Below are positions 1 through 59,560 of a DNA stretch of 64,000 bases, in pieces. The translations under genes were made by a program, and so were the position numbers. This stretch comes from a virus (taxonomy: Duplodnaviria > Heunggongvirae > Uroviricota > Caudoviricetes): IMG/VR virus record IMGVR_UViG_3300028832_000003, positions 64,001 through 128,000 of that record; one strand, given 5' to 3'. Every line of letters starts with the position of its first letter. Position 1 is the stretch's first letter. The notes under the pieces were generated by a model. The model saw only the letters and a program-made list of their open reading frames with translations, was not told the origin of the DNA and ran no database searches.

Positions 1-3000
1 ATCTTATTGACTTCTTCGCCACCTTCTCCCATGAGTTTCGTAAGGTCAACAGCACCATTCTTAATTTTGTCTTGTAAGTCTGCATCAAGTTTTGCAAGCT
101 CTTTATTTGCTTGATCCTCATACATGATAAGAGCGGAAGAGTAATCCTTGATTTCCTCGGACACAATTCCAATCTTTCCGGCAATGAGAATATTTTTAGA
201 CATAGAGCCATTGACATTTTCAAGGCTAGCATCGAGTTTGTTAAGTGCCTGATCTATTACTTCAATACGACGCTCGAAGAAGTCGAAGAGTTCTTCGTAA
301 TCATTCTTCGTTGAATCCGCATCAGCTAATTTGTCATAATTAAGATCAAATGTATCAAGGTCAAGCCCAACCTTTTTCATTTCTTCTATAGTCTTTACAA
401 TCGGATTAACTTTGTATGCTACTATATTAGCATATTCATTTCCAGACATTGCTCCAGCATTTAACTGCTCAAGCTTATCGTTGCCCCATTTATCTTTAAC
501 GGATTGCTCAGAATATATATCATAATATTGTGCAACAATTTCCAATTCCTTTATTGCTTCTTCTTTTGTCATTCCGAACTGTTGCATTAACCTATCCTTA
601 AACATGTTAAGTTTGGCTTCTTCATATGTATGATATTTTGACAAATCAAATTTATATAATTCGTTTATCTTTTTAATAAATGCGTCGTTGTTTTTAATTT
701 TTGTTGTGTAATAATCTTCATCTAGTTTTACCTTTTCAATATAAGCATCTCTATATTGTTCAAAATCTTTCTTTCTATATTCTTGAAGAGCAGTATAGAT
801 TTCTTCAACAGAAGTAACGCCAGAATAATATCCGACAACAAGAGTATTTAATTCATCACTTAATCCTGCGACAGATGATAAAACTGATTCAGAAATTTGA
901 TTGTTTTTCATTGCTTCTTCAAATTCTCTTAATACAGATGTACTGTTCTTAATATCTGAAAAAGCATCTTTTAATTCTTTTCCTGCACGTTTGGCAGTAA
1001 CTTCAATTTCTTTCAGTACTTGTAATATTCCAACTTTCTCTTTTTGAATATTAAACCACTGATCGGTTGTTATTTTACCTTCTTTTGCATGTTCAATAAT
1101 TAAAGAAAATGTATCATCAAATTGTTTTTGTAATTCATCACTTAAACCATCTTTTTTAATTTGTTCGAGAATATCGTTATATTGTTGATATAATAATATT
1201 TCTTCATTATCTTCATCTAATCCAATTGTTACTTTTACTTTATCAAACAACTCATCAACAACTTGTTGCAAATCACCAGCATTGTCAGAAGTGATATCAA
1301 CATCAAATTCTGTTTTTATTTTTAATTTATCTTCATTTGTTAAAGTATTATCTCTGATTTTTGTCAAATATTCTTCTATTGAACTGAGACTTGATTGATA
1401 ATCATTAATTGCATTCGCTTGTGATTCTGTAAATTTTCCGTTATATTTTGTTGTATTAACTATCTTTGCATAATGTAAAAAGGCATCCTCTAAATTACCA
1501 TATTCTTCAATTAAATTTAATAACAAAACTAATTCGTCTTGAGTATTAACAGAGTTTTCTTTTACGAAATTTTCATATTGATTAAGCCATTCAGAGCCTA
1601 TTGTCTTTGTATATCCAGTACCACTTTCGTATTTTTCTATGAAACCATTTGATGCTGATGCTGCCTTATTCATTATGGCATAATAGTTTGACATTAATGA
1701 ATCTGTATCAAAACCAAGCGCAATTCTAATTGTATTTTCATCAATTCCTAATGCTTCTGAAAGACTTGTTATTAATGCATCAACTTGAGGAACTAGTTCT
1801 TTAATTGCCAAGTCTTTATCTTCAAGTCTAATAAGTTGAACTAAATCAATTTGGGCATTTTTGTCGTTAGCTATCTTATCAAGAATATCTGCAACATAAT
1901 TTCCAACATCATCAGAAGTTTTATGTTGTAATGCTGTTTCTATGTCTATTCCGTTTATTATACGAGAAACGGCATTTTGCACGCTCGAATCTAATTCTTT
2001 ATAATTTTCGTCTAAATGCATCCATGCATTTGCAAGGCTTCTATATTTTGTTAAATTCTGTTGTGTTTCCTGATTTAATTGTCTATACAAATTCTTAGCA
2101 GCTAATTGGGCTTTTATTAAATTCGCTTCTGTATAAACAAAATCTCCATCAACATATTCTTTCCCAAAACCAGTTTCGCTTGCAAGGTATGTCTGTGCAA
2201 AATTAATTAATCTCCCGGATTGCGGATCTTTATATTTATATTTTGCATTATCAAAAATTTTATCAAAATCATCTGGATTTGACATCTCTAAAAACTCTTT
2301 AAGTAGTTCTGCTTCGTCAAGTTTCGAAAGAACCTTCTGCCTGCCAACTACATATGATTTTTCGCTCATTCGATTGAGTTGTTCGACAATATCATTACCA
2401 GATGTGTCTTGCCCAGTTGTTACCAACAAAGTGTATGCCGCCTCTTGTGCATCAAGATATGCTTGTCTTAATTCTTCAACACCATCTTTTAGATTAATTA
2501 TCGCATTCCCTTCACTAGTCCAACCATCCACCATTGTTGGGAACATGTCTGCTATTTGATTAACAACTTTATTATACTGACTAAATTCATCTTCGGTTAA
2601 CGAAATGTTTCTGCCAAGAGAATCAACACCTTTGGATAGTTCTTCATATTTTGGAATTAAACCTTCGATAGTTTCTTTATATGAATTTGCCTCATCAATG
2701 GCTTCTTTGTATTTACTAATAGTATTTTCAACAGATTCTGCAAGTTCTTCATCTGTTTTAATTAATATGTCAATTAATTCTGTTAGTCCACGGATTGCAA
2801 GACTTATACCAATGCCAATTGCAGCATTAAGTGCAACATTTAAGGCAGATGTAGCTATTGTCGCTGCTTTTGATTTATCCGCATATTGGTCTATGTTACT
2901 AGAAAGATTTTTACTATTGACTATAGCATCTCTCGTAGCAGAGTTCATATTTTTTTGGTTTGTTAATAAGAACTGATCAGTATATATCTTTCTTTGCTCT

Positions 3001-6000
3001 ATGTCATCAATTTTACTTAAACCATCAGCATATGTTTTTAATGTATTGACATCTGCTTTCTCAAAAAGTTTTCCAATACCATTTGTGAATCCATTATTAA
3101 ATATTCCAACATTCTTAAATCCAAGAAAAGCTCCTATGCCAGCACTTAAAGTGCCACCAAGCCCTCCAAGTTTTGTTATGTTGTTTACAAAATTTATAAC
3201 CGCATTACCAGCTTCTACAAAGAATTTAATTAAATCAGAACTAACAAGAGTCTGAGATAGTTCTTCTATACTTGCTTTTGTCTTGTCAATTGAATATTGA
3301 ATTGACTGTTGATATCTTTCTTGCTCTCGCATAGCAGACCCTTCAGCATCTTCTGCGGTTTGATATGCTTTTTCAAGAGTATCGATGTTATTAAGAACGG
3401 CATATAAACCATTCGCCATTCTCTTTCCAGCCAAAGCTTCTCCTAAAGAAGCCCTTTCAATATCTGTTAAGTTTTGCCATTCTTTTCCAATTCCAACCAT
3501 AATCTCATATAAATCTTTATATGTATTATTGTCTTTCATAATGTCAAAACCAGTTAAACTCTTAACAAGACCACGAAGTTTTGATGTAGACTCAGTATAC
3601 TCGTCTTGCTCCTCATTAAGTTCTTCTAATTCTGTTTTCGAACCACGAATTCTTGCAGACATTGTTTTCCAAAGGTTACCAACAACCTGCGGATCTTGTA
3701 ATACTGTATTTGTCGTCGTTACAAGTGCAACAGATTTTTGAAGGTCTGTATTCGCAGCATTAAATGATGCAGCACTCCTCTTAAGGGCCTCACCAATTCC
3801 ACCAGAACTAATTGCAAAATTGTTTGATACCTCATTAAATACATCAATAATGTGTATTGCATCTTTGGCTTCCATTTGAAAACCTTGAAGCGTAGAAATA
3901 AGAGACTCGTTTGCCGTACTTATGTCAATTCCGTCACCAACATTCTTATAAATAAGGGCAACTCTTGCAAGTTCTTTGCTGTCCGGTAAATTATAACCCA
4001 TCCTTGCCCAGTCAGCAGTTGCGGCAATTGTATCTGTAATTGTTCCACCAACTTCTTTTGCGGTATCAGCATAAGACTTAAAATCTTTCTCAAGTTCTTT
4101 AATGGAATGATCTGATACTTTCGCCAACTCTGTAAATTGTGTATTAAGTTGAATTACATTCTGTCCAATCATTTTTGCATATCGCATTATATCTCTAAAA
4201 CTGAAATAAGATGCAATCTGTTGGGCAAATGTGTAAAAGACTTTATTTTTAAGTGTTCTTATAAAACCGGATCCAGCTTTGTTTGCACGATCTATTTCTG
4301 TTTGAATGTTGAAAAATGCCTTTTGAATTTCTTGTAATTTGATATCACTTATTTCTGGATTTTGTGCTTCAGTCATTAAAGCAATAATCTCATTTCTTTT
4401 GCCTTTTCCAATCCTTGTGTTATAATTAACATATTCTTGCATCTGCTGGATAATGCTCGCTGCACGAACAGAGTTTGCACGCTTTGGTATCTCAGATAAT
4501 TTACCAAATAAATCCGTTATTTCATTTTCTAATGCAGTTACTTCTTGAACTTGATTCTCGTTTGTAATATCAAGTTTATAATCTTGTAATAAAACAAGTT
4601 TATTCTGTATATCATTTAATACATCATTATATTCATTCAAATATTTTAAGGAATTCTTACTCTTACTTACCCTATCAAAATCCCTTTGAAATTTATCTAA
4701 TGGTCTTGTGTATATTTCTCTATAGTTTTCTTCATTTTTCTTTTTATCAAACAAATAATTTTCTAAGTCTGCATCTTTATACATCTTTTCCCAATTATAT
4801 TTTTGTTCATTATTTGTTTCTTCTTTTTTTGTTTCTTTTCTTGTTCCTAAAACATTACTATTGCTAGGATTTTTAATTGCATTGGATTCTTTTTTGAATT
4901 CATCTGTTTTTTCTCTTACTGCGCTAGTAACATTTTCAACCGATTCTTTTAACTCTGTTAACTTATCTTTTTCAGATGCTACAACTCTATTTACTATTTT
5001 TTCTTCATTTGTAAAGGCAGTATTTTTCTTTCCTATTCTCTTAGATGTTTCTTTGAGGGCATCATTAAGTTCATTAACTTTTGATATTTCGCCATCTATT
5101 CTATCTTGATTGTTTATATTAAAATCAGTATCTATTTTTACTGTTTCTCCAATAAGTCTATTTGTAACTTTCTGAGAGAACCCCTCCGAATCAAATTCTC
5201 CTTCAGAAAGTGGCTCAACTGGGATCTGAGCGGGAGAGAACTGAATTTGCTCAGAAACTGATTCTGCAAATTTTGATGGTTCATTTATTTCTGGTTGTAC
5301 AGAAATGGTGGCGTTCCATCCGTTGAGAAATTGTGTTGTTTCTGTAACGAATAAATTTGGATCATCAACATTTGGTTTAACATTAACTTTTGCAAATTCA
5401 TCCTTAATATTATCAGTAATTTCATCTACAAATTCATTTGGATTTAAAATTGGCTTTACTTTAATAAGAGTAGGAGATAATCTATCCGGAAGTTGTTCTT
5501 GAAATTCTTCTGTTCCCAACCCATTCTGCGTATTTGATTGTTTATTTATTCTATCAAAATCATATCCCAACTCTTCTAAATACACATGTGCTTTTGGAAG
5601 TGTTGCGAGAAAATCATTCCATTCGTCTGACTTAACAAAATCTTTTGCTGCACCATATGACATGAATTTATCTTTAAATTTTTCAAGTTCTGGATACTTT
5701 TCTAGTATATGATCAATCCACTTTGTTTGATCATCTATATCTCTTTGTTCTGTTAAAGTCTTTAGTTCAATTGTGGAATCAACCAAATCTAATAACTTAG
5801 CAGATAAATTTTTAACATAATCTCTACTGTCAGACAATGCCTCATTTAATGAATGTCTAAGTGATTCACTTTGGGATTCAATGTTTTTAATTTCTTGTTC
5901 TATACCATAAAACTCAGTAGATACTTTGTCTATGTTCAATCCCAAACGATCTTCTGCAACCTTATCGAAGCGCTTTATGTCTTTATAATCATAATGATTT

Positions 6001-54716: not shown

Positions 54717-55086
54717 TTCATTTTCGTTGGTTTTATATCATGGTGATATCATTTTGATATCACTTTTTTTATTGGCTGGTTTTGTCTGGATTTCTCGATA
54801 TTGGCGGTGAAAACATTCCGGGATGTGGGTCGTGATAATTTTAGAAAGTTTGAGATGATTTTAAAACGGTGATTTTAGTGGAATTTTAGGTGCGGTTTTG
54901 GGGTGATTCTTTAGGGTGGGGTGTGGATGAAGGTGCTAGTCCCCACGCAAGAAAAATAAGGGCGATCTAGCGTTTTTGCTACCCCCCAATTATATATAAA
55001 ATCACAATTTTATCTATTATTAAAATGCAATAATTGTTTATTGTAACACGATAAAAAATTAAAGTAAAAATTTAATTTTTGCTGCC

Positions 55087-55114
55087 TTGACATTTTATTT
55101 GTATATGTTATCTT
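55087..55114 (+). promoter_or_regulatory. SigmaA-type early promoter
   Basis: TTGACA-16 nt-TATCTT with extended TG; A/T-tract UP element upstream. Confidence 0.7.
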
Positions 55115-55157
55115 ACAGTCAAGCCGAGGGGATAGCAAGCCGAGGCGAAAGAAGTTA

Positions 55158-55176
55158 GTACCTTGATAATTTCATA
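55158..55176 (+). promoter_or_regulatory. boxA-like element 1
   Basis: GTACCTTGATAATTTCATA resembles Firmicute rrn leader boxA; near-copy at 56360. Confidence 0.5.
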
Positions 55177-55352
55177 TCGAAAAGGCTGTCACTGTGTACG
55201 GGCGTAGTATGTCCGTATCACATACCGCACACCTATACGGTTGGGATTCCGCATGGCATAGCGTGGTTATGCATATGGGTGTGAATTAGGCCTACCACGT
55301 AGAGAAGTCTGCATATGGTTGCAAGGGCGTACACTAATAGGAGGATACTACA

Positions 55353-56012
55353 ATGTTAAACCTTAATGCAAAAGAACTTAAGCCCCTTAGAGACGCACTT
55401 GCGCTCTATCACATCGCTGATTTCAACAAGGCTGATGCCGACATTTCCAAGTCGAAGTATATCCGTCAGCGTGAGATCATCATCGCAAGCAACCTTGAGT
55501 CCATCGCTAAGATTGACAGGGGCGAGTGCAAGACCGTAGGCGGCAAGACTAAGGCTCAGATTGAGGCTCAGAACGTGGAGCTTCAGAATGAGATTAATGC
55601 TAAGCGTGAGGAGATCATGGCAAAAAAGGCTGAGTTTGACAAGAACATCGCGGTTGCAATCGGTTTTCTTACTGAGGATCTCCGAGTAGCCGGCAAGGCG
55701 TACCTCGCCAATCCGTACAAGGAAGAGCTTGAAAATGCATTCGCCGAGGCATTTGCGAAGTGGTTCAATGACAATGGTGCGAAGTCTGCATCTGCACTTG
55801 ATTGCAAAAAGTTCGTTCGCCCTATGGGCGTAATGATTGGAAGCAGTCGCACTAAGTGCATGACAAACAACCACACTCGTGCCGTCAGTGGTAAGAGTTT
55901 TGATCAGCTTCTGCTTGACGTAATCTGCGACGAGCCGACCGTAAAGGCACTGTTGCCGATTAAGAAGTGGGAGAACGTGATCGAGAGAAAGACGAAAAAG
56001 TCTGCCGAGTAA
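55353..56012 (+). CDS. Orphan 219-aa first early protein
   Basis: AGGAGG RBS, strong codon bias, coiled-coil middle; no recognisable family. Confidence 0.8.
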   Translation: MLNLNAKELKPLRDALALYHIADFNKADADISKSKYIRQREIIIASNLESIAKIDRGECKTVGGKTKAQIEAQNVELQNEINAKREEIMAKKAEFDKNIAVAIGFLTEDLRVAGKAYLANPYKEELENAFAEAFAKWFNDNGAKSASALDCKKFVRPMGVMIGSSRTKCMTNNHTRAVSGKSFDQLLLDVICDEPTVKALLPIKKWENVIERKTKKSAE

Positions 56013-56359
56013 TACCGACCATATGACAACTAAATATTGGGGCCCACAAAGTGGGACGTAACCGTTAATTAACCACAAGGCCCTTGCAACGATATGTGGA
56101 CTTCTCCATTGACGAACATTCCCTTGATTTTTGAGGGTTGCCGTCATTGACGTGGCATAAGGGCATATATGGTGGCAAGAATGTCGCATGAGTGCTTAGC
56201 ACAAGAGCATGGTCTGTATTCGTATGCCGTTAAACCGTCACTGTGCCGACTAAGTCATTCGACCGTCATATTGAGATGACGTGATTTTGGCGAGGTCACT
56301 TGCTAACGTGCCACAAGCGATCAATGGTGGATTTATGGGAGTTGATGGGGCGAGTTCGT

Positions 56360-56380
56360 GTACTTTGACAAACATTCATA
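56360..56380 (+). promoter_or_regulatory. boxA-like element 2
   Basis: GTACTTTGACAAACATTCATA. Confidence 0.5.
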
Positions 56381-57343
56381 GCGTGAGGCATGACCGATAA
56401 GGGGGTGCTTCTGACATCATGGGTCGAACTGCGTGCTTTTTTAGGCGTGGGGTTCGCTCCGTGGAGGCCACGTGTTTTTTTTGCGTGGGTGAAGTGGGGC
56501 GTTCCAGATGATTACCTTTGGGGTAATTGGGCGCATTCTGCGTGATTTTTGCGCACGTTTGCGTTCAGCGATGAGGATAGGTCTGTCTTATAGCAGCGAC
56601 GGGTAGAGTACCGTCGTGCGAAGCCAACGTATGCGATTGCGTTGCAAGCGCGTCGTATGCGTTAAGATGCTCAACGGCTTTTACTAGTGGTGCGCCGTCT
56701 TTGACGCGCATTATGTGGCAGGGTGGCTATTACCATGCGATTGTACGAGACAGTTGCGTCCATTTGTGGGCGTAGTCTGCATGGGTAGGGCGAATCATAG
56801 CAGAACGTTGTGAATACCGTGGTCAGGGACGAAGTCCGACCCTAGCTAAGCGTGTGTCTAACGGTGCGTGGCAGTGCATGCATTTTATGCATTGGTACGT
56901 ACTTCTCTGTGGGCTTATTAGGTGCGTAAGAAGAACCTTGCGCGTCGAAACGTCGCTAAAGATTGCCGTGCGAGTAATTGCACGCTAAGAAGACTGTAAA
57001 TCGGATTGTGCGCACATGGTGCGCTTATGGGTCAGCCACGTGATAACGATCTACGCATGGGCATGAAATAAGGCCCCGTCAGCGAATAAAGCGAGTAGGT
57101 AACCGCGTCGGAAATGCGGCTTAAGGAATAAACAGCGTTATCATGCACGAGGGGAATACTGTCAGTGTACCCTTATGAGTCATGCTTAGAAAGGTGTGAC
57201 GAACGGGGATAAAATACCCACGGTGAAAGTCCGTCTTTACGTTATACCCATGTCCTCAAGGGGGTGCGTAAATATAAAGGTTGCCGTTGGCTACGCGATA
57301 AAGGCGGTTCCCATAAGGGAATACAACGAATGTTGAGGCAAGT

Positions 57344-57439
57344 GGGCATTATCATGGGATTGGGAGACGAACGGCAAGGTTCGTCTTTTTTTGCGGATTA
57401 AACGCAATTAACCAGACGGTTCGAGTCCGTCAATGCCCT
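57344..57439 (+). ncRNA. tRNA-like element (acceptor stem + T arm, aberrant middle)
   Basis: GGGCATT/AATGCCC; GACGG-TTCGAGT-CCGTC; internal GACGAAC/GTTCGTC hairpin followed by T7. Confidence 0.6.
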
Positions 57440-57473
57440 TTTAATGGTGCTACGGAAGAAGAAGGAGGTATTT

Positions 57474-57704
57474 ATGGATAAGGCAAGCGCATGGTATCAT
57501 TACAGAAACGAAAAGCTTGGAGTTAGTTCGCTGACGTGTCATCAAAGGGAAGACATGTCTTGGACTATCAAGCACTTTGGTCTTGACCAATGTAAAAAGG
57601 CATATTATACAAAATTAGAAGATGCCAAAGATAAGACAGAAACATCTTTTAAGTTTGATCAGACTGAAATGGAATGTTTAAATGCCCTTTCCATAGGATT
57701 ATAA
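57474..57704 (+). CDS. Early hypothetical protein
   Basis: AAGGAGG RBS, MDKASAW. Confidence 0.7.
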   Translation: MDKASAWYHYRNEKLGVSSLTCHQREDMSWTIKHFGLDQCKKAYYTKLEDAKDKTETSFKFDQTEMECLNALSIGL

Positions 57705-57725: not shown

Positions 57726-57902
57726 ATGATTACTTATACAGTCCGTTATTATGACGGAAACGAGAAGTGGTTTGATGCGCCAAATATTATGGAGCTTATG
57801 ATGCATCTGTGCGAAACGGAAGACGTAAATGAAATTTGTCAAATTATGTCACATGATCACCGCAACGGAATTACATTGGAATCAATTTGCAGAAAAAACT
57901 AG
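57726..57902 (+). CDS. Small early protein (58 aa; not in track)
   Basis: GAGGT RBS, MITYTVRYYDG...CRKN*. Confidence 0.6.
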   Translation: MITYTVRYYDGNEKWFDAPNIMELMMHLCETEDVNEICQIMSHDHRNGITLESICRKN

Positions 57903-58182
57903 TTTGTGTTATCCTTTAAAAAAACGGAAGGACGGTGACTTAAATGGAAAAATTGGTTCTTTATGTAGTAAAATGGATGGAAGACACTTATTATTTTTCC
58001 ACATACGAAAAAGCCGTGGAATTTCTAAAAAAGGAGTCTTTCATTACTTACACAAAAGAAAATGAAGAGAAATGGCTCAAATCAATGATAAGAGAAGAAA
58101 CATTGACAGTATATTAAAAAATTGAACCCTAACAAGGGTTCTTTTTTTATACCCAAAATTAACAACGGAAAGGAGAATTAAA

Positions 58183-58350
58183 ATGATTGGCAGACGCTTT
58201 ATCAACGGTCACACCGTGACCACGTACAAGGTCGGCAACGTATATGAGACGACCGTATTTGACAAGTACGGAATTATCATTCGTTCAAGGGTAGATTTTA
58301 CCCCTGAACAGGCACGAGCAACGAACGACAAGTTTTGTAATTTGTGTTAG
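58183..58350 (+). CDS. Small early protein (55 aa; not in track)
   Basis: AAAGGAG RBS, MIGRRFING...CNLC*. Confidence 0.6.
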   Translation: MIGRRFINGHTVTTYKVGNVYETTVFDKYGIIIRSRVDFTPEQARATNDKFCNLC

Positions 58351-58367
58351 GGGGGTGGTAACGGAAA

Positions 58368-58478
58368 ATGAAAGGATACCCAACGCAAACCGGTTACATG
58401 GGATACGTTCCATGGAAACGCAGATATATTCTGTTTTCCACGGAAACGGAATATCTTGAGTACATAACGGAAACGTAA
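58368..58478 (+). CDS. Small early protein (36 aa; not in track)
   Basis: GGGGGTGG RBS, MKGYPTQTGYMGYVPW...EYITET*. Confidence 0.6.
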   Translation: MKGYPTQTGYMGYVPWKRRYILFSTETEYLEYITET

Positions 58479-58539
58479 AGCTAAAGCCCACGATCCAGGG
58501 CTTTATTTTTATGCAAAAAAACGGAAAGGAAGTGATAGT

Positions 58540-58662
58540 ATGACGTTCATCTACTACACGGCAAACGGAGGCCGGTATTACGTGAACGGAACGTGGCTAG
58601 GCAACTTCTATGTTGACGGCTACGGAAACAAAAGGGATATGCAGACGCAATCCCTGATCTAA
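58540..58662 (+). CDS. Small early protein (40 aa; not in track)
   Basis: AAAGGAAGTG RBS, MTFIYYTANG. Confidence 0.5.
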   Translation: MTFIYYTANGGRYYVNGTWLGNFYVDGYGNKRDMQTQSLI

Positions 58663-58680
58663 CGGAAAGTGAGGATAAAA

Positions 58681-58833
58681 ATGGATAACAAAAAGGAACG
58701 ATGCCGAGACTGTATCTGTCTCGTGCAAGGTGATAATGGAGAATGGATATGTGACGAAAAGCAAATGGAAATCAACTCCGTGGAAAGATGCCCGGAAGGA
58801 ATGGACGACGAAAGCGAAAGCGAGGTGGAGTAG
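58681..58833 (+). CDS. Small Cys-rich early protein (50 aa; not in track)
   Basis: GAGG RBS; CRDCIC...WIC...CP. Confidence 0.55.
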   Translation: MDNKKERCRDCICLVQGDNGEWICDEKQMEINSVERCPEGMDDESESEVE

Positions 58834-59010
58834 ATGCACACAACGGAAACTGTAATGACGCCTCAAGATAGGGCGATTGACATTGTAAAGTGCCTTTATG
58901 CGGGAAGTACGTACCGAGATCTCAGACGGAAAACAATCAGCCTGTTAAAACAGGCAAAAACGGAGAATGAAATAACTAGAATTCTCCGCAATGCAAGGTT
59001 AGAAAGTTGA
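58834..59010 (+). CDS. Small early protein (58 aa; not in track)
   Basis: GAGGTGG RBS; ...LLKQAKTENEITRILRNAR. Confidence 0.55.
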   Translation: MHTTETVMTPQDRAIDIVKCLYAGSTYRDLRRKTISLLKQAKTENEITRILRNARLES

Positions 59011-59038
59011 ACGGAAAATCAAGGGAGCGCTCCCACAG

Positions 59039-59174
59039 GCTCCCATGCGGTAATGCAGCTTGTCAATGGCAGAACAGACAACACAACCGCCTACTTTTAC
59101 GTATTGAGTGGGGGTGGGCGGTGGTTGTCGCCAAAGGCAAACGGTCACAAGCCCGTGTAAATGCAGAGTGGAGC
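59039..59174 (+). ncRNA. Twister self-cleaving ribozyme with long P3 insertion
   Basis: UAA-UGCA-GC ... ACGG-UCACAAGC-CCGU-GUAAA-UGCA-GAGUG; P2, P3, P4 and both pseudoknots (CAC/GUG, GC/GC) can form. Confidence 0.75.
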
Positions 59175-59224
59175 AATAAAAATACCTCGCACCCAATGGG
59201 GTTAAGGGACGGAAAGGAACGAAA

Positions 59225-59560
59225 ATGGGAAAGAAGTGTATGTTGGTAAACTCTTCCATGAATGGTGGTGGAGTTGAGTGTGTTTTCGATCCAGAGCAAG
59301 AGACGCTCGCTTTAGACGGACTCGCTCACGGATACATCAAAGAGGGGTGGGAGAATGGAGACATTCTCTTTGAAGAGACGGCAAGGGAACTTTTTGGTGA
59401 TGAATATGAGGAGTTTTGTGCAATTGCACAAGAAGTAAACCGAGGAGAAGAACACCCAATCGTTCTAGCCCTTGTTAAGGACACCGTATATGGATACTAT
59501 GATGTTCACATTGAATGTGGCAGCCTTTCTTGGGGTTGTGATATTTATGAGGAAATGTAA
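59225..59560 (+). CDS. Early hypothetical protein
   Basis: 111 aa, AAAGGA RBS. Confidence 0.7.
   Translation: MGKKCMLVNSSMNGGGVECVFDPEQETLALDGLAHGYIKEGWENGDILFEETARELFGDEYEEFCAIAQEVNRGEEHPIVLALVKDTVYGYYDVHIECGSLSWGCDIYEEM

Follow-up and report, generated by a model that had tools for sequence, protein, structure and literature searches.

Large RNAs are rare in bacteria and phages. The two best studied in phages, GOLLD and ROOL, have structures but no function; both form cages, and for ROOL no protein partner is known (PMC12286853). ROOL is a large, pseudoknotted RNA of Firmicute phages, with few invariant nucleotides and a function that is unknown (PMC5737381 and PMC12286853); it measures about 580 nucleotides (nt), has paired ends, six junctions and three pseudoknots, and usually stands beside tRNA genes. 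GOLLD exceeds 800 nt, combines a conserved 3' part with a variable 5' part, tolerates loop insertions (PMC12286853 and PMC12990946) and has a real tRNA as neighbour. Here we analysed a 64,000-nt stretch of a tailed phage genome, henceforth the window (positions 64001-128000 of IMG/VR record IMGVR_UViG_3300028832_000003), in which the gene of a 219-amino-acid (aa) protein (55353-56012) is followed by a non-coding tract that extends to 57440. Coordinates refer to the + strand of the window.

Comparison with related loci makes it nearly certain that this tract specifies a conserved structured RNA element, because the order of its motifs is conserved, base changes are compensatory, indels break the reading frame and the tract terminates in a tRNA-like domain. 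The reading that we favour, at somewhat better than even confidence, is that of a stable folded RNA of about 1 kb, belonging to an uncatalogued family, which would be cut from the first transcript and would act in trans as a self-assembling scaffold like GOLLD and ROOL. It would probably represent a new kind of RNA beside these two large ornate phage RNAs. The original prediction had proposed one or two large non-coding RNAs at this place; the large structured RNA is retained by the comparison of relatives, recast as a core that measures about 1 kb and, in addition, a tRNA-like RNA of 96 nt.

The tract resembles ROOL in being large and pseudoknotted, in having few invariant nucleotides and in belonging to a Firmicute phage, and shares with GOLLD the length over 800 nt, the conserved 3' part, the variable 5' part and the tolerance of loop insertions. 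It differs from ROOL in its length (850-1080 nt with a tRNA-like end, as compared to 581 nt on average) and in its link to a single protein gene that opens an operon, instead of to tRNA arrays; the nearest tRNA gene of the window lies about 7 kb away on the other strand, and only a tRNA mimic is adjacent. No end-to-end closing helix comparable to the paired ends of ROOL was found in the tract, in scans of low power. With respect to GOLLD, the differences are the tRNA mimic in the place of a real tRNA and, in the relatives, a pistol ribozyme at the 5' boundary. If the favoured reading is correct, and the protein is a partner, this would be the first RNA of the GOLLD and ROOL kind with a linked protein, giving a direct handle on what such RNAs do. 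The family is longer, and since it combines a fixed early position beside one gene with readable processing signals, the ends, the timing and a candidate partner can be predicted.

Conservation and folding of the tract

A codon-pattern search gave 34 loci in three collections, 14 of which encode a member of the family of the 219-aa protein. L022, L024 and L016 were dropped as duplicates or near-duplicates and L007 has no downstream DNA, which left ten loci, among which L009 and L026 are incomplete and L026 is about 95% identical to L005. Most of the loci were found via the protein, so that the co-occurrence of gene and RNA is inflated in this set. A non-coding tract is present 3' of the gene in 10/10 of these distinct, close-subfamily loci with downstream DNA; it is 1.2-1.4 kb long where complete (1.56 kb in L035), and the proteins of the nine loci compared are 27-41% identical to that of the window.

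The conserved core of the predicted RNA occupies 984 nt (56360-57343) and contains a series of motifs. M1 (56360-56400; another boxA-like core, weaker than the first, and after it a hairpin whose loop reads GAYAA), M3 (56841-56852) and M4 (56930-56937) were found in the window and in 10/10 relatives, M5 (57082-57092; an invariant 7-nt loop on two closing base pairs, one of them inverted in two lineages) in the 9/9 relatives that are long enough, and the T-arm of the terminal domain in 8/8. M6 (57220-57234; a T-loop-like hairpin) and M8 were each present in 8/9 relatives, and M2 (56597-56616; a 6-bp hairpin with a T-loop-like loop) in 4/10, or 5/11 when the window is included. The order of the motifs is constant in every locus, and the window carries all of them except M8. 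The motifs were defined by eye on the same sequences, and the independent test is a leave-one-out profile. The profile built from eight relatives, with the window left out, matched positions 56359-57278 (E 3.5e-15), which is its only match in the genome; such profiles recovered the window, L017, L021 and L005, that is 4/4 of those tried. Identity in the core between the window and the relatives is 42-51%.

Only 8/64 indels between four pairs of closer relatives are multiples of three, and by this measure the tract is not protein-coding. The longest + strand open reading frames (ORFs) starting with ATG range from 21 to 62 aa across ten tracts; in the window the claim that no ORF of at least 60 aa lies between 56190 and the next gene held, the longest being 51 aa. 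In L035 the loop of the hairpin before M6 accommodates an ORF of 86 aa and its ribosome-binding site (977-1237 nt from the stop codon), and the closing helix of this hairpin looks intact by eye.

When nine helices were anchored on the motifs, 303 of 312 positions were paired (97%), as compared to 1336 of 1774 (75%) when the arms were swapped between lineages; these totals include the L005 variable-arm row (0/4), where the rule chose a wrong anchor. All positions of M2 (30/30, five loci) and M6 (32/32, eight loci) were paired. Changes on both sides of a pair occurred in 3/6 columns of M2, 1/2 of M5, 2/4 of M6, 3/5 of the T-stem and 4/5 of a pseudoknot, as well as in 6/7 of helix P(a), where 2 nt of slack was allowed in native and control pairings alike. 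P(a) extends over 57236-57272 (57236-57242 with 57266-57272, beneath a CCC/GGG hairpin), and its loop forms the covarying pseudoknot in seven relatives. RNAalifold, run on six sequences, found M6 and P(a), with 8/14 pairs changed on both sides.

The case for an RNA rests on the relatives, since hairpin density is not unusual and Rfam is empty for the region: on the window it called three tRNAs, plus one chance match in the region. The original prediction had taken dense hairpins, and G.U pairs that work on the + strand, as evidence for selection on RNA, and both arguments failed. Averaged across windows of 120 nt, the + strand z-score is about -0.9 in the tract (14 windows) as compared to about -1.6 in the 3 kb of small genes that follow (30 windows), so density is not above background. 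The raw energy of the + strand is better in the tract, but also downstream, and the G.U pairing is explained by a G+T skew; for this reason hairpin density and strand asymmetry were discarded as evidence. The nine stems that had been listed do lie where they were placed, although only that at 56597/56611 belongs to the conserved helices and the other eight are unmatched; the terminal tRNA-like domain was absent from that list. In contrast to the rest of the tract, 56360-56900 (z-score -3.44) and 57344-57440 (-4.20) fold better than all their shuffles; the scores of 56013-56360 and 56900-57343 are -0.54 and -1.23. The tract had also been described as richer in GC, and so it is with respect to the genome (0.44-0.54 vs. 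0.37), but the gene in front is equally GC-rich (0.47-0.50).

Signals at the two ends of the predicted RNA

The tract ends in a 96-nt tRNA-like domain (57344-57439) with a 7-bp acceptor (57344-57350 with 57432-57438), a 5-bp T-arm (57415-57431) and no encoded CCA. It shows a D-like loop containing GG, a T-loop with invariant U, C and A, a conserved UUA linker and two hairpins, of which the first (57364-57387), in the anticodon position, is variable, and the second (57391-57407), in the variable-arm position, has a UUAA loop. The acceptor is 92% paired and the T-stem is paired at 44/45 positions in nine loci, with changes on both sides, which corresponds to the canonical 7 + 5 bp. A fixed-offset scan over anchor pairs recovered both stems, while deranged controls gave only the one invariant pair. 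No anticodon arm with a 7-nt loop and U33 was found, the hairpin being free in length and sequence, and neither ARAGORN nor Rfam calls a tRNA at this place in the window; sub-threshold tRNA and tmRNA matches were obtained in relatives. The UUAA hairpin was considered as a stop-codon anticodon, an idea that was dropped because its position is that of the variable arm and a U33 loop is missing.

Class II tRNAs, the tRNA domain of tmRNA and allo-tRNAs share with the element the 12-bp acceptor/T branch, the invariant U, C and A of the T-loop and the extra arm before the T-arm; the phage element differs in the lack of a conserved anticodon loop, of a tag reading frame and of an encoded CCA. Its 7/5 branch also contrasts with the 8/4 or 9/3 of allo-tRNAs (PMC5389517). 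For the 3' end our working analogy is MALAT1, a long non-coding RNA whose 3' end is made by RNase P cutting at a tRNA-like structure, mascRNA (PMC8457004); that system is eukaryotic, no homology is claimed, and in the phage the cleavage is a prediction.

The model of the domain matched eight further phage loci (19 sources given), plus one real tRNA weakly, and in each of these eight the element separates a non-coding tract from a gene. An IMG/VR scan for the element listed 119 of about 140 loci, many of which are real tRNA-Leu, tmRNA or chance matches. RNase P and 3' nucleases read the tRNA features that the domain retains. Excision of the large RNA at this domain is likely, and from its shape RNase P would cleave at the base of the acceptor. 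The element, a second motif absent from the catalogues, is found again at RNA/mRNA junctions of other phages and may serve as a search handle for more large RNAs. In L148, L091 and L103 a promoter-like site is followed, 800-900 nt upstream of the tRNA-like element, by further non-coding tracts that are likewise uncatalogued and have no Rfam match; they contain repeated AGCAGG-loop hairpins that resemble the D-arm of the element, and the protein of 265-277 aa that follows belongs to another unnamed family, its relationship to the 219-aa family being unsupported (probability 0.6%).

At the other end, between the stop codon of the 219-aa gene and the core, lies a variable segment (56013-56359). 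A pistol ribozyme (RF02679) was found there in 5/9 relatives scanned (L005, L006, L009, L025 and L035), with 65-77 bits against a gathering threshold of 34.5; its start lies no more than 50 nt from the stop codon, and its 3' end adjoins a boxA-like motif. Theta ribozymes are reported to process RNA beside the tRNAs of gut phages (10.1101/2023.06.13.544163), whereas in the relatives the pistol ribozyme marks the 5' boundary of a predicted large RNA; in the window no ribozyme was recognised. Between pistol and M1, about 165-300 nt after the stop codon, L005, L006, L025 and L035 carry a tandemly duplicated hairpin, whose asymmetric internal loop is conserved; this candidate protein-binding repeat is absent from the window. 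Other ribozyme-like elements were seen in L241, where a twister-like sequence (2774-2839; 53.6 bits, cut-off 67.2) precedes the gene of a distant family member and a hammerhead-like core (about 3560-3600; by eye, with no Rfam match) follows it.

A boxA-like motif had been claimed in the leader of the 219-aa gene, and it is there, at 55160-55176, with two mismatches in 17 to the pattern that marks the rRNA operons of Clostridia, the class to which we take the genomes with family members to belong. This pattern has 74 matches in 31/121 genomes of the class, as compared to 9 for the reversed control, and of 20 loci examined, nine are located 90-200 nt upstream of a 16S or 23S rRNA gene. The internal copy in M1 matches the first 10 nt only, with one mismatch. 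In E. coli the complexes formed on rRNA boxA prevent termination and chaperone folding (PMC8632103), and by analogy we infer a role of the rRNA type, as an antitermination signal and folding aid, for the phage RNA.

Taken in sequence, the favoured reading would proceed as follows. Host RNA polymerase would start near 55120, and Nus factors would bind at boxA, which would allow over 1 kb of untranslated RNA to be made and folded in the fashion of rRNA. RNase P would cut at 57344 and so generate the 3' terminus of the large RNA, and cleavage after 57439 by a 3' nuclease, for example RNase Z, would free the downstream early mRNA. In relatives the ribozyme would set the 5' end; in the window an unrecognised cut would do so. 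The released RNA would pack via T-loops and pseudoknots and would probably multimerise, with the 219-aa protein as first candidate partner.

The 219-aa protein and the rival explanations

The original prediction had called the 219-aa protein an orphan. Its gene stood, as a member of an unnamed phage protein family, but the protein has about 47 relatives (11 in one search and 39 full-length in another, partly overlapping). The predicted fold (pLDDT 92.8) consists of a long two-helix hairpin (residues 7-104), a small helical C-terminal domain and a basic tail. No match was found in Pfam, PHROG or fold searches, and Foldseek gave nothing at E 0.001 or below. A VIA fold match (best Z 7.7, rmsd 4.9 over 87 residues) covers the hairpin only, and the best one for the C-terminal domain has Z 4.5 and rmsd 4.5 over 81 residues; neither was accepted. 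A structure atlas contains one unnamed viral cluster of 196 aa at 0.80, which is a lead only. No GenBank phage matched the region, the tract of L006 or the family protein, and a protein-based locus search of IMG/VR, as well as one sequence pattern there, found nothing.

A ribonucleoprotein (RNP) of the RNA with this protein, already proposed in the original prediction, is possible, and the co-occurrence that bears on it runs one way only. RNA-motif scans of IMG/VR gave the core in 1/49, 2/2 and 2/119 listed loci; the positive ones are two contigs that carry the gene and a 338-nt L005-like fragment too short to tell, and no core was found in these scans without the gene. An obligatory RNP is weakened because distant relatives of the protein lack the RNA. 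Binding of the RNA to the 219-aa protein is therefore put forward tentatively, and on the available sequences seems somewhat unlikely. A bolder proposal, to which we give rather little credence, is that of a third and larger (about 1 kb) class of ornate phage RNA, made like a private rRNA with antitermination, a ribozyme and an anticodon-less tRNA mimic as tag, that, during the first minutes of infection, would assemble into a particle together with its own coiled-coil protein.

Several results weigh against the large processed RNA as described above. The helices were picked by eye on the same 9-10 sequences, which represent only seven lineages, and swapped arms pair at 75% anyway. Two elements, motif M8 and the second pseudoknot, are missing from the window, and what might be the first pseudoknot there falls short of significance (P 0.24); no 5' ribozyme was recognised in the window or in 4/9 relatives (L010, L012, L017 and L021). 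No long-range helix joining the domains emerged above chance, with three native matches as compared to 0-6 in deranged controls, in a scan whose power was lowered by three anchors of one set being a few bases off, the long-range scans having little power overall. Long helices within single loci gave P values of 0.18-0.72. Finally, seven loci with distant members of the protein family have no RNA core. Five of these (L128, L125, L133, L141 and L162) encode a distant member of 196 aa, whose gene is preceded by a tRNA-like element and is not followed by a core (the sequence of L128 was viewed); the other two are clear family members among 399 genomes.

Two further arrangements were observed. In L128 (about 1500-2340, and also in L125, L133, L141 and L162), a promoter-like site, a boxA-bearing non-coding tract and a tRNA-like element precede the 196-aa gene, so that the order is swapped, and the tract is without the core motifs of the window. 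On the reversed strand of L240 (about 2600-3240) an AT-rich non-coding tract, about 800 nt long, follows the gene of a distant member and ends near a T-arm-like hairpin; it has no similarity to the core of the window.

The lack of a significant long-range helix also favours, with respect to one large RNA, a string of smaller, independent modules (boxA hairpin, T-loop hairpins, pseudoknotted 3' domain and tRNA-like RNA) that would be co-transcribed and processed apart. The ends of the tract are indeed modular, with pistol in 5/9 loci, M2 in 5/11 and the tRNA-like element recurring in other phages and other contexts. Against such a string, M1, M3, M4 and M5 keep their order over 850-1080 nt in every locus that is long enough, with 42-51% identity to the window, and the IMG/VR RNA-motif scans never found the core motif set outside its context. 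We consider this explanation unlikely, and a single integrated fold, suggested by the constant motif order, fairly probable. A pairing of M4 (56933-56937) with the T-arm (57418-57422) was not accepted, being complementary but showing no covariation and mismatches in 2/9 loci.

The original prediction had offered a cis antiterminator as a further possibility, and we extended it to a processive element like put or EAR, or to a platform for the 219-aa protein acting on the early operon like lambda N. The tract stands at the head of a long series of small genes, in which terminator-like hairpins occur at 58124 and 58482, and it has two boxA-like sites. Put and EAR are far smaller, the tract being many times their size. 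Related phages retain promoter, boxA and gene without this RNA, and the 219-aa protein is predicted to be well folded, as opposed to the extended N (PMC8632103). Since likely cutting signals bracket the tract, an antiterminator is less likely than a processed RNA, and we regard it as improbable.

The tRNA-like element is more widespread than the core, and it might be asked whether the 96-nt RNA is itself the working product, with the core secondary, and serves as a decoy for tRNA-binding proteins or for host defence nucleases directed at tRNA. The conserved UUAA loop and UUA linker, neither of which RNase P is known to require, would fit a decoy. However, this would leave 1 kb of conserved motifs unexplained, the freedom of the anticodon-position hairpin in length and sequence offers no consistent target to anticodon nucleases, and the element is at RNA/mRNA junctions in every context seen, so that we judge a decoy very improbable.

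The view of the original prediction that the region is not assignable to ROOL or GOLLD was confirmed with Rfam models. ROOL (RF03087, which needs at least 99.1 bits) gave no match at E up to 10 in the region, its own genome or the records of two relatives (G001 and G002), while the L119 control scored 189.7 bits; GOLLD (RF02032, a model of the conserved 3' domain, at least 150 bits) gave none at E up to 10 in the genome of the window, in a search made without a GOLLD-bearing positive control. Group II introns, RNase P RNA and rRNA fragments had no Rfam match at E up to 10 in the region or in nine related loci. The profile of the core matched neither the ROOL of L119 nor lnc002 of Staphylococcus phage K, an abundant phage RNA of about 1.15 kb and function unknown (PMC9241854), which differs also in adjoining real tRNA genes and in showing no similarity to the tRNA-like model. 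A very diverged ROOL or GOLLD, suggested by the same kind of host and setting, by a 13-nt stretch near 56800 with which the L119 ROOL also begins at its 5' end and by the tRNA-shaped element preceding that ROOL, is hardly credible in view of these negative matches and of the 13-nt stretch not being intact in relatives. As an observation in itself, the L119 locus (2240-2976) has a tRNA-shaped element and a boxA-like motif directly 5' of the full ROOL RNA, a likeness to our tract seen by eye; the model of the tRNA-like domain (R1) does not match this element.

Literature searches gave no description of this RNA family. None of the motifs occurs in six supplementary files of PMC10690425; three others, two of them very large, lie outside that search, and the 29-151 nt candidates of that work may include short pieces.

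Head of the operon and genome setting

The source record is a complete phage genome of 152,015 bp with direct terminal repeats and 36.7% GC. The 219-aa gene and the tract open a series of small + strand genes, separated by an AT-rich gap from a leftward gene block. This block includes a gene like DnaD or replication initiators and encodes a protein of 873 aa with 26% identity to a protein annotated as RNA polymerase in Enterocloster phages, which we take to be YonO-like; a copy 60% identical is found in the phage of L006. From the boxA match and the occurrence of family members in such genomes, the host would belong to the Clostridia.

The strong promoter of the original prediction corresponds to a sigma-A/70-type site with an extended -10 (55087-55114; 10/12 match), from which we infer the start mentioned above; a similar -35/-10 spacing was seen by eye upstream of most relatives. 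The operon is presumed to be early because this promoter is of the host type. The leader (55177-55352), with its ribosome-binding site at 55339-55344, had been described as structured; its folding is unremarkable, and its sequence is not conserved among relatives. The leaders of L010, L012 and L017 have in common a motif with flanking stems, 60-130 nt before the start codon, found neither in the leader of the window nor in Rfam. Further upstream (54920-55010), and in the equivalent place in many relatives, distant ones included, a GTGTG..GATG motif, a C-run and an A-rich motif follow a G/T-rich tract, possibly an origin, packaging or second-promoter signal.

No terminator-like site was called between the RNA and the first downstream small gene, an ORF at 57474-57704. 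The stretch 57750-59250 contains numerous copies of the octamer AACGGAAA and of close variants, located both in front of and within the small early genes.

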